A stretch of 64,000 nucleotides of DNA from an uncultured Bacteroidales bacterium (GTDB lineage Bacteria; Bacteroidota; Bacteroidia; Bacteroidales; GCA-2748055), in NCBI GenBank assembly GCA_963771005.1, contig CAVYRO010000002.1, positions 1,550,299 to 1,614,298 of the forward strand, written 5' to 3'. This document shows, piece by piece, positions 7,929 through 64,000 of this stretch. Made by a program: the position numbers and the translations under genes. Under the pieces are notes generated by a model. The model was not told the DNA's origin. It searched no databases and saw nothing but the letters and a program-made list of their open reading frames with translations. How positions within the stretch are numbered: the first letter of the stretch is position 1; each line of letters opens with the position of its first letter.

Positions 7929-8633
7929 TCAGGCGGAATCTCCGTTTATGTCCTGGCGGAGACAGCCTGCCGCAATCAGGTATTGTGCGGCAACATATGT
8001 GACCATTATAAAGATCCGCGCAAAATCAATTTTTTCATAAAAATGGGTGATGGCGATCATGGTATCGGAAAAGACAAACACCAATGCACCGATGGCAACA
8101 AGCATATAACTCACCCCATTCACTTTACCATACCGGTTAAGCGCCGCCGTGAGCATGGTAAGGATGGCAATGCCGTAAATGATTACCGGAACCCTGAAAT
8201 TTCCCAGCCGGTTATATATCAACCAGATAATAAGAAATCCATAAGCTGCAACCAGGAATAACTGGTATATTCTTCTGCGGAATATTGTATTCTTTCCCTT
8301 TGGCAGGGTGAATGCGACTGTATAGAGAACCTGGGTGAGGAAATAGGCACCTATCCCCAGCAGGAACCAGCTTTCATTATCCAGGAACGGGGGTTCTTCC
8401 ATATTGGAGAACTGAAGGAGCAGATCACCCAACCATGAAAAAAACAATCCCGCTAATATAAGTTTCTGAAGAAGACCCGGATCTCCTAGGATCTTCGACC
8501 GGAAATACCACATCAGCGAAGGAATGATCAGCGCCTTTGCTATGAGGGCCGGAAGAAAGGAGTTGAATTGTTCGAGGATGATGAAGAGAATGCCAATGGA
8601 GAAATACCAGAGGGAAAAGGTGGACTGTTTCAT
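7929..8633 (-). CDS. YhhN-family (lysoplasmalogenase-like) membrane protein
   Basis: 234 aa and polytopic. LAGLFFSWLGDLLL and FVFSDTMIAI resemble YhhN/TMEM86 motifs. Confidence 0.6.
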   Translation of the reverse strand: MKQSTFSLWYFSIGILFIILEQFNSFLPALIAKALIIPSLMWYFRSKILGDPGLLQKLILAGLFFSWLGDLLLQFSNMEEPPFLDNESWFLLGIGAYFLTQVLYTVAFTLPKGKNTIFRRRIYQLFLVAAYGFLIIWLIYNRLGNFRVPVIIYGIAILTMLTAALNRYGKVNGVSYMLVAIGALVFVFSDTMIAITHFYEKIDFARIFIMVTYVAAQYLIAAGCLRQDINGDSA

Positions 8634-8959: not shown

Positions 8960-10294
8960 ATGAAAAGCATCCTATCTCCTCTTCTATTCCTGGCTTTTCT
9001 GAGTTCCCCATCACTCCACGCACAGGATAATGAAAAAAATACATCAAGGACTAAAACAGGCTGGACCTTCGGTGCCGTCCCAGCCATTGCGTACGATTCG
9101 GATATCGGTTTCAGGTACGGAGGCCTTGTAAATTTTTACGATTACGGAAACGGTTCAATTTATCCTAAATACAGGCATTCTCTCTATCTCGAATGGTCCC
9201 GGACGACCAAAGGCAGCGGGACCAATCAGTTCACGTATGATTCGGAATACCTGATTCCCGGAGTCCGGACATCGGCGGAGGTCAGCTACCTGACAGAGCA
9301 GGCATTGGATTTTTACGGCTTTAACGGGTACAATGCCTACTACAATTCAGCTTTTGAGAACGATACCGATCCGCTGTACAAGTCCAGGATGTTCTACCGG
9401 ATGGACCGGAAACTGCTGAGAATAAAGTCCGATTTCATGGGCAGGATAGGTGATACCCATTTAAACTGGCTTGCTGGCTTTGCCCATTATGGGATAAAAG
9501 CGGATTCTGTTGATATTGAAAAGCTGAATAAGGGCAAATCAGCTGAGGAAAGGCTTCCTTACGTAAGTGGTGGACTTTTTGAAGATTATGTGAAATGGGG
9601 GCTCATCCCCGCAGAACAGGCCGATGGGGGAAACACAGAACTTCTTAAGCTGGGACTTGTGTACGATACCCGCGACAATGAACCCAATCCGATGAAAGGG
9701 TTATGGACGGAGGTCCAGTTTCTCTTTGCCCCGCGATTCCTGGGGAATGGGGACCTGAATTATTCGCGGATCGCCATAACCCACCGGCAGTACTTCACCA
9801 TTCTTCCCGAAGTCATGAACTTTGCCTACCGTCTGTCTTACCAGGCCAGGCTGGGCGGCGATATGCCTTATTATATGCTTCCTTTCGTTTTCAACAGCCC
9901 CCCGGGCCTTACCCGGGACGGTCTCGGGGGAGGAAAGACCGTCAGAGGCGTGCTCCGGAACCGGGTCGTGGGGGAGGATTTTTTCTACGGTAACCTTGAG
10001 CTTCGTTACAAGGTGATCCGGACCGTCGTATTGAATCAGAACATCTATATTGCCCTTGCAGGTTTCCTGGATGGAGGATTGGTCACAGGGAAGTATAAAC
10101 TTCCCTTTACCGATAACCCGGAAGCACGGGCATGGCTGTCACACGGAGAGGAGGAAAAAATGCACCTGGGATACGGGGCCGGATTGCATATCGCCCTCAA
10201 TGAGAATTTTATCGTCACAGCCGATTACGGAATGGCCGCCGATCCCAGGGATGGCGACCATGGATTGTATATCGTCCTGAATTTTTTATTCTGA
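8960..10294 (+). CDS. outer-membrane beta-barrel protein (Omp85/surface-antigen-like)
   Basis: It has a signal peptide (SLHAQ), alternating beta-strand pattern, a terminal aromatic (NFLF) and YDTRDNEPNPMKG, a motif typical of Omp85 barrels. Confidence 0.5.
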   Translation: MKSILSPLLFLAFLSSPSLHAQDNEKNTSRTKTGWTFGAVPAIAYDSDIGFRYGGLVNFYDYGNGSIYPKYRHSLYLEWSRTTKGSGTNQFTYDSEYLIPGVRTSAEVSYLTEQALDFYGFNGYNAYYNSAFENDTDPLYKSRMFYRMDRKLLRIKSDFMGRIGDTHLNWLAGFAHYGIKADSVDIEKLNKGKSAEERLPYVSGGLFEDYVKWGLIPAEQADGGNTELLKLGLVYDTRDNEPNPMKGLWTEVQFLFAPRFLGNGDLNYSRIAITHRQYFTILPEVMNFAYRLSYQARLGGDMPYYMLPFVFNSPPGLTRDGLGGGKTVRGVLRNRVVGEDFFYGNLELRYKVIRTVVLNQNIYIALAGFLDGGLVTGKYKLPFTDNPEARAWLSHGEEEKMHLGYGAGLHIALNENFIVTADYGMAADPRDGDHGLYIVLNFLF

Positions 10295-49937: not shown

Positions 49938-50171
49938 AATTTGGTGATATGGTGATATGGTGATATGGTGATTTGGTGAAGTGGAAGAGGAAGAGGAACA
50001 CAGATTTGACGGATTTGTGCGGATAATCACGGAGCTAATCTGTGATAATCTGTGTAATCTGTGGTTAAACTTCCTGAAACCACTTCAAACCATTTCAAAC
50101 CACTTCAAACCATCTCAAACTATCTCAAACCACTTCAAACCATTTCAAACCACTTCAAACCATCTCAAACC
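49938..50171. repeat. composite microsatellite block, inverted copy of 3533-3780
   Basis: (TGGTGATA/T)n, gaagaggaagaggaacac, aatctgtg units and (AAACCAYYTC)n, in the mirror order of the 3.5-kb copy. Confidence 0.8.
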
Positions 50172-50184
50172 TTCCCCCGAAAAA

Positions 50185-51408
50185 TTACCTGCTTGCAAGC
50201 TCCCCCTCCACAACCTCATCCGTAGCATTATGATCCCTGTAATCGAAATACAGGTTAAGGAATGCCGGCACACTCACTGAAGCAGCTTTGCAGGGAGAAT
50301 TGGTCAGAAAAACGATGCCTACGTTTTCATCCTGGCAGAGGGCAATCTCCGACTTGTACCCGTCCACATATCCTGCATGATAGGCGACATTGCGTCCCTT
50401 ATAGCCGATGATCCGCCAACCGATAGCGTACTGTTTGGAATCGACATGATCCCAGTAACGCAGGTATGTCCAGGGAAGGGGTGTCCTGATCTGTGGCATA
50501 AGTACCGAATCGAGAACATCATGAAAGGTAACTTTATCAAGAATGGCACAAAGGAAATGAGCCATATCAGAAATACTTGCATTTACGCCGGCAGCAGGAA
50601 GGCAATTATAGTACCTGTCATTCAGCGGAAGGGATTTGTATCCTCCTCCTGACAAGTAATGCGGATAGGCTTTATCCGGGTTGTCTCTGAAGGATATGAA
50701 ACCTGTGGAAGCATTGACCATACCGAAAGGCTGAAATACCTTTTCACTGATCAGGGTTCCAAAATCTTCGGAAGTTTCAATTGAGCTGATGGTATCGAAG
50801 AGGCTGAACATGACATTCTGGTAGCTGTAAATCTCGCCCGGAGGAGCTGACAGTGTAACCCGGGAGAGGCTGTCCATGATCACATTAAAAGGAATATGTT
50901 CCTCAACCAGGTTGTCATAGGCATGAGGAACAAGTCCGGAGGTATGGCTGAGAAGATTCCGTATGGTCAGATGATTTGTATTTACTGAATCTTTAAGTCT
51001 GAACCCGGGCAGGACATCCTTGACACCCTTATTCAGATCGAGGATTCCCTGGCTTGAGAGGATCCCGGCAAGTACTCCGGTCACAGTTTTTGAAACCGAA
51101 CCCAGTCTGAAAATCGTACTGGCGTCAACCGGATCATTTTCGCCTTCTTTTCTCACTCCGTAGCATCTGAGGAACGCGATCTGGCCCTTATAAATGACGG
51201 CAACGGCAGCACCTACCGTTCCGGAAAGCTCTATTTCGCGAGTTATCAGGCTGTCGTATTGCAAAAGCACAGGCCGGATCTCAGCCAGGATCTTTGCAGG
51301 CATCACCATATCCGCAACCTTCATTTCTTTGGAGTATGGCTGAAGTTTCAGCGCTACAGATGCCAATCCCGTGAATATCAACAGGAAAAAAAAGTATCTT
51401 CGTTTCAT
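50185..51408 (-). CDS. serine hydrolase (beta-lactamase/PBP4*-like, class C fold)
   Basis: FRLGSVSKTVTG is the SxxK motif and YSYQN is the YxN motif. The signal peptide starts at MKRRYFFFLL. Confidence 0.8.
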   Translation of the reverse strand: MKRRYFFFLLIFTGLASVALKLQPYSKEMKVADMVMPAKILAEIRPVLLQYDSLITREIELSGTVGAAVAVIYKGQIAFLRCYGVRKEGENDPVDASTIFRLGSVSKTVTGVLAGILSSQGILDLNKGVKDVLPGFRLKDSVNTNHLTIRNLLSHTSGLVPHAYDNLVEEHIPFNVIMDSLSRVTLSAPPGEIYSYQNVMFSLFDTISSIETSEDFGTLISEKVFQPFGMVNASTGFISFRDNPDKAYPHYLSGGGYKSLPLNDRYYNCLPAAGVNASISDMAHFLCAILDKVTFHDVLDSVLMPQIRTPLPWTYLRYWDHVDSKQYAIGWRIIGYKGRNVAYHAGYVDGYKSEIALCQDENVGIVFLTNSPCKAASVSVPAFLNLYFDYRDHNATDEVVEGELASR

Positions 51409-52687: not shown

Positions 52688-52924
52688 CTGGTGGCTGAAA
52701 AATTACAACCTGAGGCAGGTGCAGTATAAGGCGATGACCGTTTTTTGAGACTGATGCATGCAGTAGTTACCGCCTACGAAAGCGATGAAGAAGACTATAC
52801 TCTTCCGGGTGCTCCCCTGGATGTGGAAAATTATAAGACCAGGATACGCAAAGCCCGGGAAAGGGTAAAAGCCGGTTATTATACTATACAGGAGGATCTG
52901 GAAAAGGAGATGGAGCAATGGTAA
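52688..52924 (+). pseudogene. decayed antitoxin gene (paralog of 58646-58909) with an in-frame TAA at 52727
   Basis: ..AEKLQPEAGAV*GDDRFLRLMHAVVTAYESDEEDYTLPG...AGYYTIQEDLEKEMEQW aligns in register with ..ALKKELHSYIEKADERFLKMVHALAKSYEDEEDIVGY...SGNYITQEDLEKEIKNW. Confidence 0.45.
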
Positions 52925-53240
52925 AGAAAAATTACAAGGTCATCTGGGAAGATGACGCCAAAGCTTCATTACGCAGGATCTACAATTATATTAAAAAGAA
53001 AGAATCTGTTGATCAGGCGATAAAAGTACGAATGAAATACGCGATCTGGCCAAAAGTCTTGGATTTATGCCCCACAAATATATCAAAGATCCTTTCTTAA
53101 AAGATGAGCTTGGGGATATCCGTTTTAAAGTGATCTGGAGTTACAAAATCGTTTATGAAATCACATCTGATGCCGTCATTATCCTTGATATTTTCCACAC
53201 CAGTCGAGATCCAGGTAACCTGAAGCAAATAAAAAAATAA
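52918..53240 (+). pseudogene. RelE/ParE-family toxin, frameshifted near 53041 (paralog of 58903-59220)
   Basis: MVKKNYKVIWEDDAKASLRRIYNYIKKKESVDQAIKV is followed, in the next frame, by NEIRDLAKSLGFMPHKYIKDPFLKDELGDIRFKVIWSYKIVYEITSDAVIILDIFHTSRDP. It shares the same ATGGTAA overlap with the antitoxin as the intact copy. Confidence 0.6.
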
Positions 53241-53341
53241 GTCCAGTAACACTCCCCTCCTCCAACCCTGCTGCAGTAGTTTTTTGTCATGCCTTTGGCA
53301 GTTGCCTGTTTGCGCCGCCCGGCAGCCGGGACCCCGAATCA

Positions 53342-56300
53342 TTGAACGAACAGATTCAGTATTTTGAAATGGGTCGTTTAAGGCAGGTGGTTCGTGTTAA
53401 GGGCAGCCCTACAGGTGATGATATGATCATGCCGGTGGAATATGATGTATTTGGAAGACAAAGCAAAAACTATTTACCTGTTTCGTATACCTATATTAAC
53501 CCGGGAAGTTATCTGAATAATTATACTGCCGCTCTGGATAACCTTTACAATGGAGGATTCAATATACCGGATGCGGAGGGTTACTACTATAGTGAAACTC
53601 AGTTTGACGGATCTCCCCTGAACCGGGTTGTCGCCCAGTCATCCCCCGGGGCCTCCTGGTCAATGTCAACGGGACACACCGTCGAATATTCGTATTCCAC
53701 GAACCAGGCAAGCACGATCCGTTTATGGTCCATGGACGGGAGTACGGCTACTAGTAACGGATGTTACACCGAAGGTGAATTATACGTAAACACGGTTACC
53801 GACGAGAATGGGAACCCGTCCCGGGTCTATATTGATAAAAAAGGAAGATTGATCGCTAAAGATGACACTCTCTCTGTCAACTATAGAACCTATTACGTCT
53901 ACGACTATTACGGAAGCCTGCGTTATATATTCCCCCCAAAAATGGCAAAGGATTTTGGTACCAGCGGGACCCTCCAATATACTCCTTCCACAACGCTGGT
54001 GGTTGGACTGGCTTTCTACTATCAGTACGACGATATGGGACGGGTTGTAATCGCCCAGGAACCTGGAGCCGGACAGAAATACCTGGTTTATGACCACAGG
54101 GACCGGCTTGTGGCCACTCAAAACGAAGAGGAGAGAAATGACTCAAAATGGTATTGCATAAAGTATGATGCATTGAACCGGCCGGTGATCGAGGGAACTA
54201 TAAATTCCAGTTATAGCCGTGAATCTTTACAGGCTACAGTCGATGCATATAATTTCAGTGAAGATTTTGAGACACTGAATCCTTCACAGGTTAATACATC
54301 GCCAGACTACGGCTACAATGATATTTCCTTTCCCATGGAAATAGAGCCATTAAAGATCTACTATTATGATGATTATTATGATTTTGGAACAAATTACAAT
54401 TACAAGACCAATGAGATGGCCGCTAGCGGCGATAAGTCGTACAAGCTAAAAAATGCGTTGACTGCCACCCGAACAAAAGTTCTTGACGGATCTCTTCCGG
54501 TAACCTGGCTGATCTCGGTTTCTTACTTTGATAATTATGGACGGTTGATTCAAAATATCTCCAACAATCACCTGGGGGGGTATGATATTGTCACCTCGGA
54601 ATACAAGAACACCATCAATAATAACATCACCAGGATCAAGCAGGAACATGGGATAAGCGGAACCACGGTGGATCATACCCTCATGTACCGCTACACGTAT
54701 GATCACACCGGGGGCCGGTTACTGGAATCCTATCTGACCTTTGACCAGGAGGATGAGATCATGCTCTCGGCCTTAAAATACAACAAACTGGGTCAGGTTG
54801 ACGAGAAATACCTGCATGGAGACCTGTCCACCAACAAGGCCATCCAGAAACTCGATTATATTTACAACATACGGGGTTGGCTGAAAAAGATCAATGATGC
54901 CTCGCTGAGCACTCCTGGAGATGTTTTTGGTATGGAACTGCTCTATGATGATTATATCTCAACGCTCGGTTCAAGTGGTGACAAGCAGTACAACGGGAAT
55001 ATTACCGCCATGAAATGGAACACCACTTTGCAAGGCGCCGGACTGGAAGGGTATGAATTCCGGTACGATGGTCTGAACCGGCTAACTTCGGCTAATTACG
55101 GTTACGGGACAAGTTTATCAAATTCCGGCAACCGGTACGGAGTATGGGGTATCACTTATGATGAAAACGGAAATATCCTTACCCTGAAACGAAACTCTGC
55201 AGGATCGCTTATGGATGATCTCACCTATCAGTACGACTCCAGCCTGCCAAACCGTCTTAAATCCGTTGAAGACGACGGGGATGTTAATACGGGATTCAAA
55301 AACCTTTACTCGTCGACAACGGAATATACTTACGACGAAAATGGAAGTATGATACGTGACTATAATAAAGTCAGTGGTTCATCCTATGCCTTGATCTCCT
55401 ATAACCATCACTTTAACCTTCCGGTAAGCGTAACGGTGGACACTAAAACGTTGAGTTATTCCTACGATGCCGGTGGCAAAAAACTAAGATTTAACAACGG
55501 GGATAGTCAGAATGTCGATTATATGAATAACTTTGTTTATGAAGATGGTTCTTTGTCATATATATTAACTTCTGAAGGCAGGATCGTCTATAACTCCGGC
55601 TCGCTCTCCTGGCAGTATTTTCTGAAAGATCACCTGGGCAATGTCAGGGTGGTAATCAATGAAAACCAGGATATCGTTCAGGTGACCGATTATTACCCCT
55701 TTGGTCTTTCCCGGCCGGTTATCGGTGATGGCACCCAGAAATACCTCTACAACGGGAAAGAAATTCAGGAATATGCCGATTGGTACGACTATGGTGCCAG
55801 GATGTATGACCCGGCGCTGGGGAGGTGGCATGTTGCAGATCCGTTGGCGATTAATAGACATAACCTTTCATCTTATAATTATTGTCGCAACAATCCAATT
55901 TTATTTATTGATCCTTTTGGGCTTTCAGACACCACTTATTCACAAGGAGATATAACTAAAAAAAATTATAATTTGCCTGGAGTCGTTCATAAATATGAAT
56001 ATGCATGGCTTAATCGATTTCATGGTGCTGGTGGTCAAGGAAATCCATTTGATGAGGAATTCTGGAGACATTTAGAAGAAGAATGGAGAAGAAATGGACA
56101 AAAAGCTGGTAAAAAAGCGGACAGGGAAAGAGAAGCTGCCATACTTATGCAGAACTGGCAAGATTATAAACACAATTATAATCAGCTTTGGGATATGATC
56201 AATCAAATTCAGAACAATACTGCAAATGTTGCCACAAACGGAGGGGGTGGATATACAATTGATATGCAAAGAATAGCCGAATCACCTGATGGAACTGTAA

Positions 56301-56695
56301 GTTCATTTACAGCATATGGCCCGACTCCTTTACAACCTGTTAGTGGTTATATATTAGAGCCTGGTGGGCCATCAACAACAACTAGAGGTCAAGACAAGAG
56401 AATTCCTGCTGGGACTTACAATGTAGACCCTCTTAGTAGCACAAGTCATCCTAATGTTTACAGAGTTTCAAATGGGCAAGTACCTGCTGACAGGTATATT
56501 TTAATACATACGGGAAATTATCCTTCAAATACTTTAGGTTGTCTTTTACCGGGAAGCTCGTACAGTATGGTAAATGGTAATTATGCAGTATGGAATAGTG
56601 GAACGACCCTTAATTCCTTGCGTTCTTTACTTGGTGGTAATAGTGCAACATTAAATATTTCTGACATTCCGATTTTTAATTTTAATAACTGGTAA
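53342..56695 (+). CDS. Rhs/YD-repeat toxin (DUF6443-type) lacking its normal N-terminus; C-terminal YkuD/L,D-transpeptidase-like (DUF5675-like) domain
   Basis: IQYFEMGRLRQV...PVEYDVFGRQSKNYLP is a DUF6443-type start motif. Many YD repeats follow (YxYDxxGRL/I). The RHS core end is YYPFGL...[22 protein letters not shown]...NNPILFIDPFGL at 55910-55924. The 256-aa CT contains IPAGTYNV...RYILIHTGNYPSNTLGCLLPG. An in-frame stop lies 21 codons upstream of the TTG at 53342. Confidence 0.85.
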   Translation: MNEQIQYFEMGRLRQVVRVKGSPTGDDMIMPVEYDVFGRQSKNYLPVSYTYINPGSYLNNYTAALDNLYNGGFNIPDAEGYYYSETQFDGSPLNRVVAQSSPGASWSMSTGHTVEYSYSTNQASTIRLWSMDGSTATSNGCYTEGELYVNTVTDENGNPSRVYIDKKGRLIAKDDTLSVNYRTYYVYDYYGSLRYIFPPKMAKDFGTSGTLQYTPSTTLVVGLAFYYQYDDMGRVVIAQEPGAGQKYLVYDHRDRLVATQNEEERNDSKWYCIKYDALNRPVIEGTINSSYSRESLQATVDAYNFSEDFETLNPSQVNTSPDYGYNDISFPMEIEPLKIYYYDDYYDFGTNYNYKTNEMAASGDKSYKLKNALTATRTKVLDGSLPVTWLISVSYFDNYGRLIQNISNNHLGGYDIVTSEYKNTINNNITRIKQEHGISGTTVDHTLMYRYTYDHTGGRLLESYLTFDQEDEIMLSALKYNKLGQVDEKYLHGDLSTNKAIQKLDYIYNIRGWLKKINDASLSTPGDVFGMELLYDDYISTLGSSGDKQYNGNITAMKWNTTLQGAGLEGYEFRYDGLNRLTSANYGYGTSLSNSGNRYGVWGITYDENGNILTLKRNSAGSLMDDLTYQYDSSLPNRLKSVEDDGDVNTGFKNLYSSTTEYTYDENGSMIRDYNKVSGSSYALISYNHHFNLPVSVTVDTKTLSYSYDAGGKKLRFNNGDSQNVDYMNNFVYEDGSLSYILTSEGRIVYNSGSLSWQYFLKDHLGNVRVVINENQDIVQVTDYYPFGLSRPVIGDGTQKYLYNGKEIQEYADWYDYGARMYDPALGRWHVADPLAINRHNLSSYNYCRNNPILFIDPFGLSDTTYSQGDITKKNYNLPGVVHKYEYAWLNRFHGAGGQGNPFDEEFWRHLEEEWRRNGQKAGKKADREREAAILMQNWQDYKHNYNQLWDMINQIQNNTANVATNGGGGYTIDMQRIAESPDGTVSSFTAYGPTPLQPVSGYILEPGGPSTTTRGQDKRIPAGTYNVDPLSSTSHPNVYRVSNGQVPADRYILIHTGNYPSNTLGCLLPGSSYSMVNGNYAVWNSGTTLNSLRSLLGGNSATLNISDIPIFNFNNW

Positions 56696-56706: not shown

Positions 56707-57497
56707 ATGAAAAAAATATTATTTATAAGTTTAGTTTCAATATCATTTATACTAAACGGACAAAACTTATAGAAGAGAGTCTCTCAAAAGCAGATGGCGA
56801 AAAAGTTGAATTATCTGAGTTTAATAAAACAAATTACAATAAGGTTTGGATGAAAAATCAAGATGATGTTATAGGTTATATAGGAGATAATTATCAACGA
56901 ATATATATTCACTTAATATCTGTGATTAAAAATCAATTAGTAGATAATGAATACTTTGTATATGGGAAATCAAAGGTTAAAAGCAATGTATGTGATTTTC
57001 AAGGAAAGTTTACAATTACAGATGTGCGTGAATTTAACAAAACAGAGAGGGAAGCTTTATACAAAGAAGCATTAAAACATGGTGACCAAGAAGCTGCCAA
57101 TAAATTAGGGAAAGCACGAGGTTTTGTCTTAGCAGAATACTTTTTATTGGAAAATCCAGAACAAAAAGGGAGTGGCCTTTTTAAAGGAGTTGTAAAATCT
57201 TACTTCTATGTTGATGAAAAAGGCGAATTGTTTTTTGATGACCTAGATTTGGGTTCTAGTGATACTTATTGCAATAATCAATTTGTTGGTGTTTGGCAGA
57301 GTTATTATACTAGGGCGCAAAAACCATGTAATTGGGGGGCATATAGGATACCCAACTCAGGAGATTTAGATATTGGAGCCGGTGAGTTTTCTCCAAACAC
57401 GAAATACTTGGAGAAAGGATGGGATACTTATTATCTGGCATATAATAAATCGGAAAGTGAAGCCCGAAAAGAAGAAAAACTTGAATGGTGGAAATGA
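56707..57497 (+). pseudogene. candidate immunity protein for Rhs-CT1, exported (signal peptide), split by a 1-nt deletion in the A-run at 56761-56766
   Basis: MKKILFISLVSISFILNGQN* is followed in the -1 frame by KLIEESLSKADGEKVELSEFNKTNYNKVWMKNQDD.... It lies immediately downstream of the toxin stop. Confidence 0.45.
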
Positions 57498-57529: not shown

Positions 57530-57800
57530 TTATCTATTCTTCCATAACTCAGGGTCTCGGTTTGTATGCCATACGGCTGAAACAATTATGGTTTTATTTT
57601 TTTCGTCAATTGTAAAGTGAACCATAAATGGGAACAGGTTTAAAACAGCAGTTCTCACGCTGTTGTAACGGACATTTGAAGCTTTTGGGTTTAGCCTGAT
57701 AAAATGGACTTTTTCATGGACTTCTGCAGTAAATCTTTTACCAAGTCCTTTTTGTTGTTTGTTATACCACAGGGCAGCTTCCCGAATATCTTCTTTTACA
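57530..57800 (-). pseudogene. ParE/RelE-like toxin gene, 5' end displaced by the IS66 remnant; no cognate antitoxin
   Basis: ..TVKEDIREAALWYNKQQKGLGKRFTAEVHEKVHFIRLNPKASNVRYNSVRTAVLNLFPFMVHFTIDEKNKTIIVSAVWHTNRDP is a ParE pattern. Codons upstream of T41 are encoded by IS sequence. Confidence 0.5.
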
Positions 57801-57872
57801 GTAAGCCTTCGGCCATCTGCATCTTGATTTGATTTGTAATACCGTTTAGCTTTGCCCCCAAAGCATGAATTT

Positions 57873-58169
57873 ATGAAAAAGGAGCAAAGAGAACAACAGC
57901 GGGAGAAGATGTTTTCTCTCATTGAAAAATGGCAGCAAAGCGATCAACCCCAGAAAGACTTTTGCCAGGAACATGGAATTAAGCTTGCCACATTTTACTA
58001 TTGGCAGAAAAAACTCCGAAATCGTAACCATGAAAATCACTCGGGTTTTATACCCATGGAAATATCCTCGTCTGATTCCAGAATAGTCGAGATCCGATAC
58101 CCTAACGGAGTGATCGTTCAGTTGCCAGGACTTGACCTTAGACTCCTGAAGCAACTGGTCCATCTTTAA
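57873..58169 (+). CDS. IS66-family accessory protein TnpA (orf1)-like
   Basis: MKKEQREQQREKMFSLIEKWQQSDQPQKDFCQEHGIKLATFYYWQKKLR is typical of IS66 orf1. Confidence 0.6.
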   Translation: MKKEQREQQREKMFSLIEKWQQSDQPQKDFCQEHGIKLATFYYWQKKLRNRNHENHSGFIPMEISSSDSRIVEIRYPNGVIVQLPGLDLRLLKQLVHL

Positions 58170-58184
58170 ATGTAGCTTTTTCGT

Positions 58185-58457
58185 ATGTTTACCCTTACCT
58201 CATCCTACCGGTATTATTTTTATGCCTGTGCGACGGATATGCGAAAAGGCTTTGACGGATTATGTGGGCTGGTGCACCTAGAGCTGGGGCGCAGACCTGT
58301 AACCGGTGAAGTATTCGTCTTTGTAAACCGTCAGCGTGATAAGATCACCAATGTAGAGCCTTTTGCCTGGTTAAAAAAGGTTCTTACCCTGATCCCTGAT
58401 TACTCAATACAGAAACTGGAGGATCTGCTTCCGGGAAACCTCATTCTATCTGAATAG
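58185..58457 (+). pseudogene. IS66 TnpB (orf2) N-terminus fused to the C-terminal tail of the IS66 transposase (internal deletion)
   Basis: YRYYFYACATDMRKGFDGLCGLV...GEVFVFVNRQRDKI is TnpB-like. It is followed directly by TNVEPFAWLKKVLTLIPDYSIQKLEDLLPGN, a transposase C-terminus. Confidence 0.6.
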
Positions 58458-58645: not shown

Positions 58646-58909
58646 ATGTTACAGGAAATCATGAACACAGCAGCATTAAAAAAAGAGCTTCACAGCTATA
58701 TTGAGAAAGCGGATGAAAGGTTCCTGAAAATGGTTCATGCATTAGCTAAGAGTTATGAGGATGAAGAAGATATTGTTGGTTATGAAGCCGATGGTAGCCC
58801 AATAACAAAGGAAGCCCTTATAAAAGAAGCAAGAGAAGCTTCTGCACAAGTTAAGTCCGGGAATTACATCACCCAGGAAGACCTGGAAAAAGAGATAAAA
58901 AATTGGTAA
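58646..58909 (+). CDS. antitoxin of the RelE/ParE module (intact copy)
   Basis: 87 aa and acidic. It overlaps the toxin start (ATGGTAA-type overlap) and is a paralog of 52688-52924. Confidence 0.55.
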   Translation: MLQEIMNTAALKKELHSYIEKADERFLKMVHALAKSYEDEEDIVGYEADGSPITKEALIKEAREASAQVKSGNYITQEDLEKEIKNW

Positions 58910-59220
58910 GGAAAAAACTTCCCGTTCGATGGTCCCCAAAAGCTAAGCAGAGGCTTGATAATATCTACGACTATATTGCTAAAGACTCAGTAAGTGCGGC
59001 CAGATATGTTAAAAAGTCTCTGGTTCAATTAGGAGGAAGTCTGGGACACTTCCCGGAAAAATACTCCAGAGAAGAATACCTGGCTGATGAACCGAAAAAC
59101 TACCGGTCGGTATCCAAGTGGCGATACAAGATTATTTATGAGGTAACTGACGAGTATGTGAATATCATTACCCTCTTTAATACCAGTCAACATCCTTCCA
59201 AAATAAAAAGAGACAAATAA
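58903..59220 (+). CDS. RelE/ParE-family toxin (intact copy)
   Basis: WSPKAKQRLDNIYDYIAKDS...YRSVSKWRYKIIYEVTDEYVNIITLFNTSQHP is a ParE/RelE pattern. Confidence 0.7.
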   Translation: MVRKKLPVRWSPKAKQRLDNIYDYIAKDSVSAARYVKKSLVQLGGSLGHFPEKYSREEYLADEPKNYRSVSKWRYKIIYEVTDEYVNIITLFNTSQHPSKIKRDK

Positions 59221-59254
59221 ACAATCCCCAGGCCTCCCCACCTCCAACCCTTCT

Positions 59255-59331
59255 GCAGCAGTTTTTTGTCCTGCCTTTTGCAGTTGCCGATTGCGCCGCG
59301 CATGGCAAAAGGCACGCCAAAAAACTGCTGC
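59255..59331. other. long imperfect hairpin conserved after both TA modules (only the left arm is present at 53256-53318)
   Basis: gcagcagttttttg pairs with ccaaaaaactgctgc. Inside it, tgccttttgc pairs with gcaaaaggca. Confidence 0.55.
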
Positions 59332-59696
59332 CCCGGGCAACGGCACATAATGTGTCCGTATATGCAACCCTCCGCTAAAAATAAGCTCCTACTTCCAACC
59401 GATATTTTTTCTTTTAACTGAAAACCCTCCCTGTAACGATGGGGCTGCACATACGGGAACATTATGTACCATTGCCACACCCGCCCCCACGCACGCCGAC
59501 CCTGCGCAGGCGGCACATTGCCAGGCCCCGCAAGGCCATACCCGCAGGGACCTAGAGCCTGTCAAAGAGCCGCCTGCCGGCCGGAAGACCCGCAAGCAGC
59601 ACCGGCAAAAGCAAGCCATCGCGCTAATGCCCTCCCCGGATTGCTTTTACCGGAGCTGCCGCGGAGAAATTACCTTCGAACCTGGATTAATCGCTT

Positions 59697-59909
59697 CATT
59701 TTAACCACTTAGAGCAAAGGTAAAGCCACCGGCCATACCCGCGCAAGGTCAAGCCCGTTGGGTTTTGGAGAAAAAATTTTATGTCGGTTTAACCGGGGAT
59801 AATCCAGGAAACGAAGATCCCTGATGCTAACGAAACCTGTAAAAATTTTTTCACCAAAAACCTTGCCTGCCCCCGCTGGCTTTGGAGGTTGCCTAAGTGG
59901 TTAAAAATG
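59697..59909. promoter_or_regulatory. inverted-repeat-flanked 180-bp segment (candidate invertible promoter or closing helix of a structured RNA)
   Basis: The left IR is cattttaaccacttagagcaa (59697-59717). The right IR, reverse-complemented, is catttttaaccacttaggcaa (59889-59909). The core 12-mer is perfect. A TACCTTTG (TAnnTTTG) box lies on the minus strand at 59715-59722, just inside the left IR. Confidence 0.3.
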
Positions 59910-60046: not shown

Positions 60047-61047
60047 ATGGGTTGCCTGAAACTTGCACGTAACGAAAAAAATGAACCTGTTTTGAGGTGC
60101 GTCTGGAAATCTTCCGGATGTTCAAAAATGGGCGTAAATTGGTATGATTACGGGGCCCGGATGTATGACCCGGCGCTGGGGAGGTGGCATGTCGCGGATC
60201 CATTGGCATTAAATGGTCATAGCCTGTCACCTTATAATTATTGCTTTAACAATCCGATCAATATGATTGATCTCTTGGACTGTGGCCTGGAGGTGGGAAT
60301 AACCGCCGTCATCCAACACTGGGATATAGGGGCTGTCATGGTGGCAAAAGTCGGCTTGGTGTCTTAGTTGATGGCGTTGGTGATTTTTTTAGTAAAGTGG
60401 GTAATACCATCAGTAGTAGTTTAGGTGGAGAAACGGATGGTGAATTTGGTTGGGGCAATATGGGATCTGAATTAATTGGTGGAGGATGGGCAGAACAACA
60501 ATTAGATCAAGCACTTTTATCAGCCCATTCGGAAGGGGAGAAAGAGGGTATAGCTGAAGATGCTCGAAGAACGGTTGAAACTCTAACTCGCAATGTGGGA
60601 GTTTATTATTATAAAAGGGATGAATTAAATAATCTGTTTCAGGGAATTGAAGATAATGCCAGTTCGGGAGGGGCTGGAGGAGACTTATCAAGTATGGGAG
60701 ATAATCCGCCAGACCACCCAGAATATAAAACGCCTAAAGGTGGAGATAGAAAAGTTAGAAATCCAAATGGAAAGGGGTCTGGTTGGATTGATAATAAAGG
60801 ACGAGTTTGGGTGCCAACTGACCACAAAGGAACACATGCTCCACATTGGGATAGGGAACTACCTGGCGGAGGGCACGAAAATGTATATCCATATATGAAT
60901 CCAGGTTTTAGTATTACTCCTGAGGATGTCTTAAGAGGATTAGTGATCGTAGGAGGTGCAGCAATAATTATTTTTGATATAGTAACGATACCCTCTGGGG
61001 AAGGTATGATTGGCGTTGAAATGATAAGAAGAGCTGTTGCTCCTTAA
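60047..61047 (+). pseudogene. orphan Rhs C-terminal cassette 2: core-end remnant plus toxin domain with G-W-x-D..W-x-P..H-x-P-H-W-D motif; 1-nt deletion near 60272
   Basis: MGCLKL...[45 protein letters not shown] is followed in the next frame by (P)LGLWPGGG...KGSGWIDNKGRVWVPTDHKGTHAPHWDRELPGGGHENVYP. A 30-nt run is identical to the main rhs gene (ggatgtatgacccggcgctggggaggtggcatgt). Confidence 0.6.
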
Positions 61048-61057
61048 ATTATGTGAT

Positions 61058-61633
61058 ATGATGAAATTTATAGAAAATTTTGAAGAATTGCTCCCCTATA
61101 ATAGGGAGCATTATATTGATTTTCTAGATGATGATTTTGATGCAGAGACAAAATGGTGTGCTGTTTCGCTTCAAATAAACAGTGAGAATGGAGAAACTAG
61201 TTTGTCCAAGTTTGTTGATGTTTTTGGATTGATTTTTAAGAATGTAGTATTAAAGCTTGACAACGGAGTTTCTTGGATTATAAACCATGATGATAAAGAC
61301 ATGAACTGGTTTCTTAATGACAAGGATAATTTAGAAGCTTTAAGAACCGTATTTAAAATAAATAATGTTCAAGATACTTTTAAGGGCTCGTTGATTCTTG
61401 AGAAAGAAAATCTATTAGAATTAGCACAGGATTTAATTTCATACCCATATGTTTTATCCTATAAGAATTTAGATATTTCACATAGTAAATTACAGTTTAT
61501 AATAAAAATAACCAGTCATTTGACTATTGATTTGTTGAGTACGGATAAAGAAGTTCTAAGAAAAATTGTTAAAGAAAACAGTTCTAGCAAAATCATAATA
61601 AAAGAATACAGAGGTACTTCACTTTGGACTTAG
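61058..61633 (+). CDS. candidate cytoplasmic immunity protein for cassette 2
   Basis: It begins 11 nt after the toxin stop, has no signal peptide and is acidic. A terminator follows it. Confidence 0.45.
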   Translation: MMKFIENFEELLPYNREHYIDFLDDDFDAETKWCAVSLQINSENGETSLSKFVDVFGLIFKNVVLKLDNGVSWIINHDDKDMNWFLNDKDNLEALRTVFKINNVQDTFKGSLILEKENLLELAQDLISYPYVLSYKNLDISHSKLQFIIKITSHLTIDLLSTDKEVLRKIVKENSSSKIIIKEYRGTSLWT

Positions 61634-61660
61634 ACTTAATTATTAAAGTGCGATATAACA

Positions 61661-61688
61661 GAAAAGCCCGATTGCTCGGGCTTTTTTT
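61661..61688. terminator. Rho-independent terminator (the same hairpin as 57502-57528 with the stem-loop flipped)
   Basis: gaaaagcccgattgctcgggcttttttt. Confidence 0.6.
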
Positions 61689-61694
61689 CATTCT

Positions 61695-61796
61695 TTAAAA
61701 TTTAGCTTTCCCATCCAATAAGTCTTTCATCCTTTTTTTAGTCAGCATAGAATTAATAATCTTAATCAGTGCATTTTTCTCATCTTCATCGAGTTG
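61695..61796 (-). pseudogene. 3' remnant of a minus-strand gene (..LDEDEKNALIKIINSMLTKKRMKDLLDGKAKF*), cut by cassette 3
   Basis: The reading frame is open only up to the breakpoint at about 61797. The tail resembles C-termini of XRE-type regulators. Confidence 0.3.
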
Positions 61797-62891
61797 GATA
61801 ATAAGGTCAGCGGCTCATCCTATGCTTCGATCTCCTATAATCCTCATTTTAACCTTCCGGTAAGCGTAACGGTGGATACCAAAACGTTGAGTTATTCCTA
61901 CGATGCCGGTGGGAAAAAGCTAAGATTTAACAACGGGGATAGTCAGAATGTCGATTATATTAATAACTTTGTTTATGAAGATGGTTCTTTGTCATATATA
62001 TTAACTTCTGAAGGCAGGATCGTCTATAACTCCGGATCGCTCTCCTGGCAATATTTTCTGAAAGACCACCTGGGCAATGTCAGGGTAGTAATCAATGAAA
62101 ACCAGGATATCGTTCAGGTGACGGATTATTATCCCTTTGGTCTTTCCCGGCCGGTTATCGGTGATGGCACCCAGAAATATCTTTATAACGGGAAGGAAGT
62201 GCAGGAGTATGCGGACTGGTATGATTATGGGAAGAGGTTTTATGATCCCAGTTTGGGCAGATGGCACGTGGTTGATCCGCTGAGTGAAAAATCCAGAAGA
62301 TGGTCGACTTACCAATATAGCTATAATAATCCTATTCGGTTTATTGATCCAGATGGTATGCTGCCTGGTGATCCAAATGATCCAATTACTTCATTATTTT
62401 ACTCAATTGTTGATTATTTTCATTTAAAACACGATCAAAATGAAGGAAATATTAGATCAGTTGGACAAACTGTCATGAATATGAAACCTACTGCAAACGA
62501 TTCAAAGGGAGAGGACATTGTTTCAATTAAAGTAGGAGGCAGTACAGGTAATAAAAATATCGTTCAAACAGGAGCTCAAGTAAAAGTTGCATTAAATGAG
62601 GATAAAGGTATAGTCACAACTGGTGAGATTCATGTTATTGCAGCAAGAACTTATGGAGCCTCTGCTGAAGCTTCGGTTTATGAGGAAAATGATGCTACAA
62701 CTCCTACCATTGAAACGGAAGTTGATGCTGGACCTACTACATCACCTTCCACACCTGAATTACCTGTTAAAGTTAATCCTAAAGCTCTTTTAAGAACTAT
62801 TAATGGAGCTATTGAAACTTTACAAAACTATTTTAATCAAAAAACAGATGAAATCACACATCCAGAGAAATATATTCAGAAAGAATGGTAA
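61794..62891 (+). CDS. orphan Rhs C-terminal cassette 3: about 380 nt near-identical to the main rhs core, plus a distinct CT toxin of unknown type
   Basis: 61800-62180 is near-identical to 55366-55745 (NKVSGSSYA.ISYN.HFNLPVSVTVDTKTLSYSYDAGGKKLRFNNGDSQNVDY...). The sequences then diverge: WYDYGKRFYDPSLGRWHVVDPL...NNPIRFIDPDGM plus 170 novel residues. Confidence 0.65.
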   Translation: MDNKVSGSSYASISYNPHFNLPVSVTVDTKTLSYSYDAGGKKLRFNNGDSQNVDYINNFVYEDGSLSYILTSEGRIVYNSGSLSWQYFLKDHLGNVRVVINENQDIVQVTDYYPFGLSRPVIGDGTQKYLYNGKEVQEYADWYDYGKRFYDPSLGRWHVVDPLSEKSRRWSTYQYSYNNPIRFIDPDGMLPGDPNDPITSLFYSIVDYFHLKHDQNEGNIRSVGQTVMNMKPTANDSKGEDIVSIKVGGSTGNKNIVQTGAQVKVALNEDKGIVTTGEIHVIAARTYGASAEASVYEENDATTPTIETEVDAGPTTSPSTPELPVKVNPKALLRTINGAIETLQNYFNQKTDEITHPEKYIQKEW

Positions 62892-62940
62892 TTACTTTTA
62901 TTACTTTATTCAAATAATATACTGGTATACCTTTGTTATA

Positions 62941-63393
62941 TTGGGAATTGTAATTATTTCTGATATAATAAGTTTTATTAACATGTTCAGTAAGAGTGAT
63001 TTTATTACATATTTATTTTTTCTCTTATTAATTTTAGCTGAAATCGTATTTATAATTGCAACAATTTGGCTAATTAATTATCAATTTTCCAAATATGCTT
63101 TCTATATAATATTAATTTTTTGGACTGCTCAAATCTTATTTTTTGGAATTAGGGGGAACGTATATAGTTTTACATCGGGAATTGAATTAGCTTTATATAT
63201 TAGATTTAATCCGCACTTTGATTTAGGTACTTTCTTTAATTTTTGGAGCAAAGAATTTAGAATTGAGCTTAATGCCAAAAGTCAGCGAGAATACTTTGGA
63301 ATAAATATTTTACCCTTAATACTGTCCATATCATTAGTATTTTTAAGAAAGAAATTAAAGAAGGAGTACTATTTACCTAATAAACAGCTTTAA
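62941..63393 (+). CDS. candidate polytopic membrane immunity protein for cassette 3
   Basis: It has four to five hydrophobic helices (ILGIVIISDIISFI, YLFFLLLILAEIVFIIATIWLI, AFYIILIFWTAQILFFGI, INILPLILSISLVFL). The start is uncertain: TTG at 62941, ATG at 62983, or the upstream ORF limit at 62803. Confidence 0.45.
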   Translation: MGIVIISDIISFINMFSKSDFITYLFFLLLILAEIVFIIATIWLINYQFSKYAFYIILIFWTAQILFFGIRGNVYSFTSGIELALYIRFNPHFDLGTFFNFWSKEFRIELNAKSQREYFGINILPLILSISLVFLRKKLKKEYYLPNKQL

Positions 63394-63398
63394 TTCAA

Positions 63399-64000
63399 TA
63401 TGCTTGAACTAGAGGCAAACTGGTACGATTACGGGAATAGATTCTACGATCCTGCTTTAGCCCGTTGGCATACACAAGATTTAATGGCTGAATTCTCTTA
63501 TGATCGACCACCATACAATTATGTTTCTAATAATCCAATTATTGCCTTCGATCCGGATGGGAACTTTGAAACTAAACTAGGAGCCTGGCTGTATAAAGTA
63601 TTTCACGGAGGTGTGGCAATTCGTCAAGATGAAGGAGGTGAATACTACGTTTACGAGCAAACTGAAAATGAAGAAGGCGCTGATATTACATTAAAGAAAA
63701 CATTTGACAGAAAAGGTAGAAGTGAAGGAAGAGATTTAAAACAAGAAGCTGCAGTAGAAGCCTATGAAACCCAATATAATTGGTCAATGGCTTTGGATGA
63801 GATGGGCGTCGAGTATTCATATACAAATGATCTAAGCGAAGCTAGGCAAAGTACAATTCAGGTAGCAGCTAATGTGTTATTACCAAATGCTTTAAAGACA
63901 ACAACGGCCGTTACAAATACAGCGAAAACTAGTATTAAAAGTGTAGACGATTTGCTCAGAGCTGCAGGGAAACTTGAAAAAGTAAGAGGTGCTGAGCAAG
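63399..64000 (+). CDS. orphan Rhs C-terminal cassette 4 (partial, runs off the window)
   Basis: MLELEANWYDYGNRFYDPALARWHTQDLMAEFSYDRPPYNYVSNNPIIAFDPDGN is followed by a novel CT. It is absent from the ORF track because no stop occurs before 64000. Confidence 0.6.

Follow-up and report, generated by a model that had tools for sequence, protein, structure and literature searches.

A probable orphan Rhs tip module with a rare, unannotated toxin/immunity pair in an uncultured Bacteroidales bacterium

In a stretch of 64,000 nucleotides (nt) from an uncultured Bacteroidales bacterium (contig CAVYRO010000002.1 of assembly GCA_963771005.1; hereafter the window), a large rhs gene is followed in the same orientation by short Rhs-derived orphan cassettes. 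One of these, cassette 3, shares a block of Rhs core with the large gene, continues into a C-terminal toxin domain of its own, here called CT3, and is followed by a gene for a membrane protein. Does this arrangement store a spare tip for the upstream gene, or is cassette 3 a relic with another history? Our preferred reading, which we consider probable, takes cassette 3 for an orphan Rhs tip module, situated in an island of polymorphic toxins that is decaying within a Bacteroidota genome. The only new thing about it is the toxin/immunity family, which is annotated by no library. The coordinates of the features are collected in Table 1.

The open reading frame (ORF) of cassette 3 (61794-62891, 365 codons) is fully intact. 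Its Rhs part was recognised by the NCBIfam model TIGR03696 (Rhs_assc_core) at residues 112-189, with an E-value of 6e-18 and 65.1 bits against a cut-off of 32.5, and the end of the core and the start of the toxin read ...NNPIRFIDPDGM|LPGDP. The toxin domain comprises 176 amino acids (aa) after DPDGM, not the 170 given in a preliminary description of this DNA, which had recognised no motif in it; we likewise obtained no match in Pfam or NCBIfam, the Ntox models of these libraries included. A word-indexed search of 5.8 billion proteins returned P0001 as the only relative, with 40% identity in the toxin and 45% in toxin and stub together. An exhaustive HMMER search, in which a two-sequence profile was run against 1.84 billion cluster representatives, yielded 23 proteins, 22 of them convincing and one a weak match to a repeat protein. 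No consistent Pfam family was found among the 22 members, and a profile search of the PDB with the CT3 family returned nothing. In three full-length relatives, P0005 (1220 aa), P0007 (1770 aa) and P0019 (1385 aa), the CT3-type domain directly follows DPDG, and all three carry a signal peptide, an N-terminal domain, DUF6443 and RHS repeats; the remaining members are mostly short stub-plus-toxin ORFs. Because the domain sits at the tip of full-length Bacteroidales Rhs proteins, CT3 is, as judged from sequence, a real Rhs toxin family, rare and unannotated.

The alignment of the 22 members is marked by the motifs SKGxD, ALNEDKG, PVKVN..A..R...G..E...NY and NPQKY, with a variable loop between. The Thr/Pro-rich stretch of CT3, earlier taken for a tail, is this internal variable loop, and it precedes the conserved C-terminal helix. 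The AlphaFold2 model built from the 22-sequence alignment, which is of moderate confidence (predicted local distance difference test, pLDDT, 72.9; predicted TM-score, pTM, 0.49), places five long β strands between two long helices, one at each terminus. A structure predicted from a two-sequence alignment was unusable (pLDDT 41). Structure prediction with Foldseek had been proposed in the preliminary description; a Foldseek search of the PDB with the moderate model returned nothing significant, and matches to β-barrels and gasdermin pores were at chance level (E ≥ 0.03, TM ≤ 0.34) and were not counted as evidence. The strands of the family show a strict two-residue alternation of hydrophobic and polar residues. 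CT3 itself is acidic. Its family ranges from acidic to neutral, and long amphipathic β strands abound in it. No transmembrane-grade segment was found in the 22 members, the highest 19-residue Kyte-Doolittle mean being 1.33 in the family and 0.68 in CT3. Judged by these profiles, CT3 is not a hydrophobic helical pore-former. A β-type pore is possible and is supported by no match.

The ORF that follows CT3 occupies 62803-63393 in full, and the gene has a GC content of 23-25%. Its start is likely the ATG at 62848, since the resulting protein is identical to the database entry P0031; the conservation of its homologues begins upstream of the CT3 stop codon. The protein has four hydrophobic segments, in line with the four to five helices described earlier, and both of its termini are rich in Lys and Arg. 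The positive-inside rule would place both termini in the cytoplasm, and the 45-aa loop between helices 3 and 4 would therefore be periplasmic. Most invariant positions (FFG..GN.Y.F..G, W..E and N..S...Y.G.N..P) fall in this loop or beside it. We compared five loci, two with full-length rhs genes and three with orphans, and all of them (5/5) encode a four-helix membrane protein of this family (27-49% identity) in an ORF that overlaps the toxin gene at its 3′ end. The immunity family matches the toxin in rarity; the five clusters found bear neither names nor domains, and the window ORF matched no Pfam or NCBIfam family. Because the two are inherited together in all five loci, the four-helix ORF is a strong candidate for the cognate immunity gene of CT3, as had been suggested, and would be expected to confer protection. 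The result is a defined toxin/immunity pair with 22 toxin clusters, six immunity sequences (that of the window and five relatives) and clear motifs.

CT3 probably acts at the cytoplasmic membrane or at its periplasmic face, because its immunity protein is polytopic and the best-conserved loop of that protein is predicted to be periplasmic. Of the earlier proposal of a membrane-acting, possibly pore-forming toxin, membrane action is retained as an inference, but the pore is reduced to one option, with neither a hydrophobic helical segment in CT3 nor a structural match to a pore-former. We tentatively picture the CT3 family, with considerable doubt, as an undescribed class of Rhs-delivered envelope toxins, small and acidic, with five amphipathic strands clamped by two helices. 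Such a toxin might form a β-type pore or bind a target on the periplasmic side, and might be blocked via the GNxYxFTxG...WSQE loop of the four-helix protein.

The Rhs part of cassette 3 begins with the core block shared with the upstream gene, here called the handle. A repeat search of the window paired 55362-55661 with 61798-62097 as a direct repeat of 94% identity, and an ungapped comparison of the whole block gave 364 identical positions of 384 (94.8%) at an offset of 6436 nt. The block is thus real, but "nearly identical", as the preliminary description had put it for 61800-62180 against 55366-55745, is an overstatement, and the coordinates paired there miss by 2 nt. Before 61798, 23 of 112 positions agree (20%, chance level). 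To the right, identity drops to 60% over 62182-62366 and homology stops at IDPDGM in the orphan and IDPFGL in the upstream gene, which bears out the divergence of core end and toxin noted earlier. The divergent core end can be aligned with the stub of P0001. Given the sharp drop from 95% to 60% near YLYNGKE, core and tip appear to form a mosaic joined there, and the divergent core end would be part of an exchangeable tip module that travels with the toxin. We also considered a fixed, site-specific stub boundary and rejected it, as stub starts vary across the toxin family (WYDYG, YLYNGKE, DYYPFG and further upstream).

Seventeen of the 20 mismatches in the handle are synonymous (synonymous divergence, dS, 0.24; nonsynonymous divergence, dN, 0.010; dN/dS 0.043), a pattern that departs from neutrality (binomial test, P = 3.5e-9), and the encoded segments agree at ~ 98% of residues (125/128). 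Since the dS of 0.24 is accompanied by strong purifying selection, the handle is old and not a fresh copy: the two cores diverged long ago, while both were translated and under purifying selection. Synonymous-only divergence of this kind is a cheap discriminator between an old allele and a recent copy. The longest exact runs measure 74, 47, 41, 35, 32 and 29 nt. Gene conversion was considered and set aside; by a rough estimate the 74-nt run is not unusual, and the 20 mismatches lie mostly at third codon positions. Outside the window, a word-index search found relatives of the handle whose best matches share ~ 50% identity with most of the query and no more than 69% with about half of it, in an index that is incomplete and did not return the window's own proteins. 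More than 1000 short Rhs-core proteins akin to the handle are present in public data, where such core stumps appear to be common.

Table 1. Features of the Rhs island in the window and loci with a CT3-type immunity/toxin pair.
Feature	Position	Strand	Remarks
"Main" rhs, 5′-truncated fragment	53342..56695	+	partial DUF6443, RHS repeats, Rhs_assc_core, DUF5675 C-terminal domain
Handle partner within the upstream rhs gene	55362..55745	+	repeat search and ungapped comparison
Orphan cassette 2, short core stub and Ntox37 toxin	60125..61047	+	core repeat 80% over 135 nt; toxin out of frame at ID|SLGLW
Bidirectional terminator-like hairpin	61660..61687	.	12-pair stem AGAAAAGCCCG-ATTG-CTCGGGCTTTTTT, found on both strands
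XRE-type HTH (helix-turn-helix) regulator gene, putative 3′ remnant, 33 codons and stop	61695..61796	-	C-terminal match to Chondrinema litorale regulator
TTG opening the 365-codon ORF	61794..61796	+	complement of the HTH remnant's Gln codon
Handle, Rhs core, 384 nt	61798..62181	+	94.8% to 55362-55745, ungapped, codon phase shared
Divergent Rhs core end, YLYNGKE...WYDYGKRFYDP...IDPDGM	62182..62360	+	~ 60% nt identity to main gene; TIGR03696
CT3 toxin domain, 176 aa and stop	62361..62891	+	rare unannotated Rhs C-terminal family; motifs SKGxD, ALNEDKG, PVKVN, NPQKY
Immunity candidate, 181 aa, four transmembrane helices	62848..63393	+	equals P0031; overlaps CT3 stop by 44 nt
Orphan cassette 4, ATG, short core stub (MLELEANWYDYGNRFYDP...DPDGN) and further C-terminal domain	63400..64000	+	runs off window end
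Immunity/toxin pair, window	cassette 3	+	orphan
Immunity/toxin pair, L001			orphan
Immunity/toxin pair, L003/L004/L008			full-length P0005, Bacteroidales bacterium UBA5206
Immunity/toxin pair, L006			full-length P0007
Immunity/toxin pair, L007			orphan, uncultured Bacteroidales metagenome-assembled genome

The left end of cassette 3 lies within another gene. The minus strand of 61698-61796 translates to QLDEDEKNALIKIINSMLTKKRMKDLLDGKAKF, followed by a stop, and this peptide can be aligned to the final 30 residues (QLDEEDKNVVKKLIDAFITKKKLQQLTQYK, residues 89-118) of a helix-turn-helix (HTH) regulator of 119 aa, encoded on a plasmid of Chondrinema litorale, a member of Bacteroidota. The match has an E-value of 7e-5 against the window and of 7 across the plasmid database, which amounts to moderate support, and the N-terminal HTH part of the regulator was found nowhere in the window. 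The minus-strand gene remnant that had been reported to be cut at about 61797 would accordingly encode the C-terminus of an HTH regulator. On the plasmid, a gene for a 317-aa "RHS repeat-associated core" protein is next to the intact HTH gene and divergent from it, and a VapC toxin-antitoxin pair lies alongside; the relative arrangement of HTH gene and orphan RHS gene is alike in the window. The TTG that opens cassette 3 is the complement of the remnant's Gln codon and would for this reason owe its existence to the junction; it is no evident native start. No in-frame ATG precedes Met189 of the cassette 3 ORF. By all appearances, the junction at 61796/61798 is illegitimate, and the 5′ part of the HTH gene was lost there. 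The hairpin at 61660-61687 sits between the cassette 2 immunity candidate (plus strand, ending at 61633) and the HTH remnant. In the cassette region, an Rfam scan gave only sub-threshold chance matches. A sigma-70 promoter scan, with a model that is ill-suited to Bacteroidota, did not rise above shuffled sequences, and TAnnTTTG sites numbered two in ~ 2 kb, close to chance, so that no Bacteroidetes-type promoter motif stands out.

The upstream gene proved to be incomplete. Its ORF opens with TTG, in-frame stops lie just upstream, and its DUF6443 match begins at residue 2 with profile position 23. In a BLASTP comparison, residue 3 aligned to residue 180 of the full-length P0005, in which DUF6443 starts at residue 157 with a signal peptide ahead. 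A tblastn search with three full-length relatives detected no Rhs N-terminal segment elsewhere in the window. The main rhs gene therefore lacks ~ 180 N-terminal aa, the signal peptide and the N-terminal domain included, and cassette 3 lies downstream of a 5′-truncated gene, not of an intact full-length rhs. The main gene's immediate 5′ neighbour is a toxin-antitoxin module of ParE type with a split toxin; unrelated metabolic genes on the other strand follow farther out. All four Rhs-derived pieces in 53.3-64 kb are incomplete. The lesson is that an orphan array should be called a switching system only once the N-terminus of its "main" rhs gene has been verified.

This truncation bears on the proposal, made in the preliminary description, that the handle is kept as a substrate for toxin switching, by which CT3 would replace the resident tip CT1 on the main gene and arm the cell anew, as in evolved Salmonella. 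In its favour, the two copies are direct repeats in a common codon phase and 94.8% identical, with exact runs of up to 74 nt, a length that suffices for RecA homologous recombination, and both the CT3 ORF and its immunity gene are intact. A crossover between the repeats would delete 6,436 bp and give an in-frame rhs::CT3 fusion, so that this part of the proposal holds. Recombination of main and orphan rhs genes between shared homology regions was demonstrated experimentally in Salmonella (PMC3967940). Here, however, the recipient is without ~ 180 N-terminal residues, signal peptide and DUF6443 start included, and no other Rhs N-terminus is found in the window; for lack of this region the fusion would yield no exportable toxin, unless an intact paralogue elsewhere in the genome could deliver it. 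The simple deletion would also take out the CT1 immunity gene, and the dS of 0.24 shows no sign of recent homogenisation of the handle. Recombinants were to be sought in related strains, but scans of genome and metagenome contigs gave no close relative of the locus to check, only the distant toxin-family loci L007 and L008, and an exact look-up of the 365-aa cassette 3 protein found no contig on record. We therefore regard toxin switching as an unlikely reason for the handle to be there. The idea that the block is an assembly artefact, a misplaced or duplicated repeat, which the preliminary description had named as its own refutation, has nothing in its favour beyond the existence of the repeat. 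It is excluded for practical purposes by the 20 differences, 17 of them synonymous, and by flanks that are unique on both sides, the downstream one differing and having homologues of its own in other genomes.

With a simple displacement from the upstream gene, the other origin suggested earlier, the position of the left junction within an HTH gene would go unexplained. A more serious alternative is that cassette 3 was never displaced from the upstream gene and is instead the stump of a second full rhs gene that lay downstream, divergent from the XRE-type HTH gene, and lost everything between the HTH gene and core residue ~ 674 in one deletion. The junction within the HTH gene, with the two genes pointing apart, and the divergent HTH/orphan-RHS pair on the Chondrinema litorale plasmid agree with this account, a dS of 0.24 is in keeping with either a paralogue or a separate allele, and the toxin-antitoxin modules and IS66 remnant between the cassettes are unlike a clean displacement array. 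The plasmid is nevertheless a single comparator locus with a short HTH match, insertion of foreign DNA by illegitimate recombination would look identical, and cassettes 2 and 4 carry the short conserved-motif stubs expected of displacement; we find the second-gene account plausible and would still not bet on it. Much less probable, in our view, is expression from an internal promoter, with CT3 and its immunity protein acting in the producer as a toxin-antitoxin-like pair. An orphan rhs of Salmonella is reported to act inside its producer (PMC7043789), the cassette 3 ORF is intact, the overlap of toxin and immunity genes suggests translational coupling, and neighbouring stubs have an ATG of their own right before WYDYG. 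Against it stand the missing ATG before Met189, the origin of the TTG as a probable junction by-product and the failure of any Bacteroidetes-type promoter motif to stand out, and a periplasmic immunity loop, as predicted here, would suit an incoming toxin better than a cytoplasmic one.

The reading that we prefer, that of an orphan tip module in a decaying island, would be built as follows. Cassette 3 would consist of 128 Rhs shell codons of the upstream gene's lineage, the last 60 core codons up to the IDPDGM self-cleavage motif, the 176-aa toxin and the overlapping four-helix immunity gene. The module was presumably once the 3′ end of a working rhs gene, in which a core of the resident lineage had been joined to a foreign tip. 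That gene probably stayed functional for long, because its divergence from the upstream gene is synonymous-only. An illegitimate event, either a deletion or an insertion, would then have fused the module into the divergent HTH gene at 61796/61798, and the sequence 5′ of core residue ~ 674 would have been lost. What keeps the module in place is most likely its immunity gene, which may protect from neighbours deploying this toxin family, or the module is simply young. We regard the island as decaying because cassette 2 is frameshifted, the first toxin-antitoxin module has a ParE in two parts and the IS66 element has lost an internal portion. Conceivably, tips of this kind, with ParE toxin-antitoxin modules set between them, serve Bacteroidales as stabilised immunity islands for which no working rhs gene is needed.

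Several points weigh against this reading. A 365-codon ORF that is intact amid decaying neighbours could mean use and not youth. Our view covers 64 kb of a 1.9-Mb contig, and an intact paralogue able to use the handle may lie elsewhere. The HTH assignment is a 30-residue match that is weak database-wide. Moreover, the CT3 model is of moderate confidence and matchless, and the proposed site of action is read from the nature of the immunity protein only.

The other pieces of the island show varied states. A shift of one base takes the Ntox37 domain of cassette 2 out of frame precisely at the cleavage motif ID|SLGLW (60255-60330), which marks either a pseudogene or a sequencing error. The stubs at 60125 and 63400 and those at 8007, 10001 and 11583 of L001 start at WYDYGAR, several of them with ATG or TTG immediately before. 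Starts of this kind would be compatible with right-hand crossovers within the conserved motifs of the core, or with a stub and toxin that are translated on their own. The CT1 immunity candidate (56850-57497, 215 aa) follows the DUF5675 domain of the main gene; it is identical on the 1.7-kb contig L009 from another sequencing run (ERR11594398) and clusters with 270-aa versions from other samples. A gene of ~ 1100 aa lies 12-35 nt upstream of full-length rhs in L003 (2572-5988) and L006 (403-3720), in L003 with a CBM_4_9 domain and one RHS repeat, which suggests a conserved two-gene unit for DUF6443-type Rhs proteins.

We also observed ParE-type modules at 52745-53240 and 58646-59220 on the plus strand and a third ParE at 57530-57922 on the minus strand. 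The first, in which ParE is broken into two ORFs, immediately precedes the truncated main rhs, and the second stands ~ 900 nt ahead of the cassette 2 stub; in L001, an Unstab_antitox/ParE pair (9473-9981) ends 20 nt ahead of the stub of the CT3 homologue. Both plus-strand modules of the window are followed by a conserved stretch of ~ 75 nt (about 53250-53320 and 59235-59300), in which CCTCCAACCCTnCTGCAGnAGTTTTTTGTC occurs at 53259-53288 and 59241-59270, twice in the window with zero occurrences expected. After the second copy, 59300-59800 has 55% GC and no convincing ORF. The IS66 remnant (57852-58457) contains an accessory HTH ORF and then the first half of TnpB fused to the C-terminal element of the IS66 transposase, which indicates an internally deleted element between the cassettes. 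Farther away, ~ 13 tandem copies of the 10-nt AAACCAYTTC occupy 50047-50186, just outside the 3′ end of a minus-strand gene of the β-lactamase family.

How does the locus compare with known systems? Tse5/Tsi5 of Pseudomonas aeruginosa and the pore-forming colicins employ membrane immunity proteins, those of the colicins with 3-4 helices. The CT3 locus is like them in encoding a polytopic inner-membrane protein right after the toxin. CT3 itself is unlike colicins A, E1 and Ia and Tse5: it is β-rich, is devoid of a hydrophobic helical hairpin or glycine zipper, and gives no sequence or fold match to them. The acquired interbacterial defence clusters of Bacteroidales keep orphan immunity genes without a deliverable toxin, in islands with mobile-element debris. 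Cassette 3 resembles these clusters in its immunity gene without a deliverable toxin and in the debris around it; it differs in that no recombinase or repeat scaffold was seen and that the toxin ORF is intact.

A full-text literature search returned no papers on DUF6443, and the closest counterparts to the layout are found among Rhs loci at large. As in the polymorphic toxin cassettes of Bacteroidetes described by Zhang et al. (2012, PMC3482391), a Rhs/YD shell, a variable toxin and an adjacent immunity gene are combined, and tips stand alone in arrays; CT3 and its membrane partner differ from those cassettes in matching no current Pfam or NCBIfam model. The orphan rhs-CT/rhsI modules of Enterobacteria (Salmonella Typhimurium LT2, E. 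coli and Serratia; PMC3967940, PMC3150448, PMC10539506) likewise carry a core fragment in frame with the toxin after DPxG, have the cognate immunity gene next, and lie in the same orientation downstream of a larger rhs gene with homology usable for recombination. The layout of cassette 3 is thus ordinary for Rhs loci, and orphan tips with core homology, as well as their recombination with the main gene, are already established. In contrast to the enterobacterial orphans, however, cassette 3 belongs to Bacteroidota and to DUF6443-type Rhs proteins with a Sec signal, not to the PAAR/VgrG-linked type VI secretion system type. Its upstream gene is truncated, its junction lies in a putative HTH gene, ParE modules and an IS66 remnant are interleaved with the cassettes, and its toxin and immunity proteins belong to other, unannotated families.

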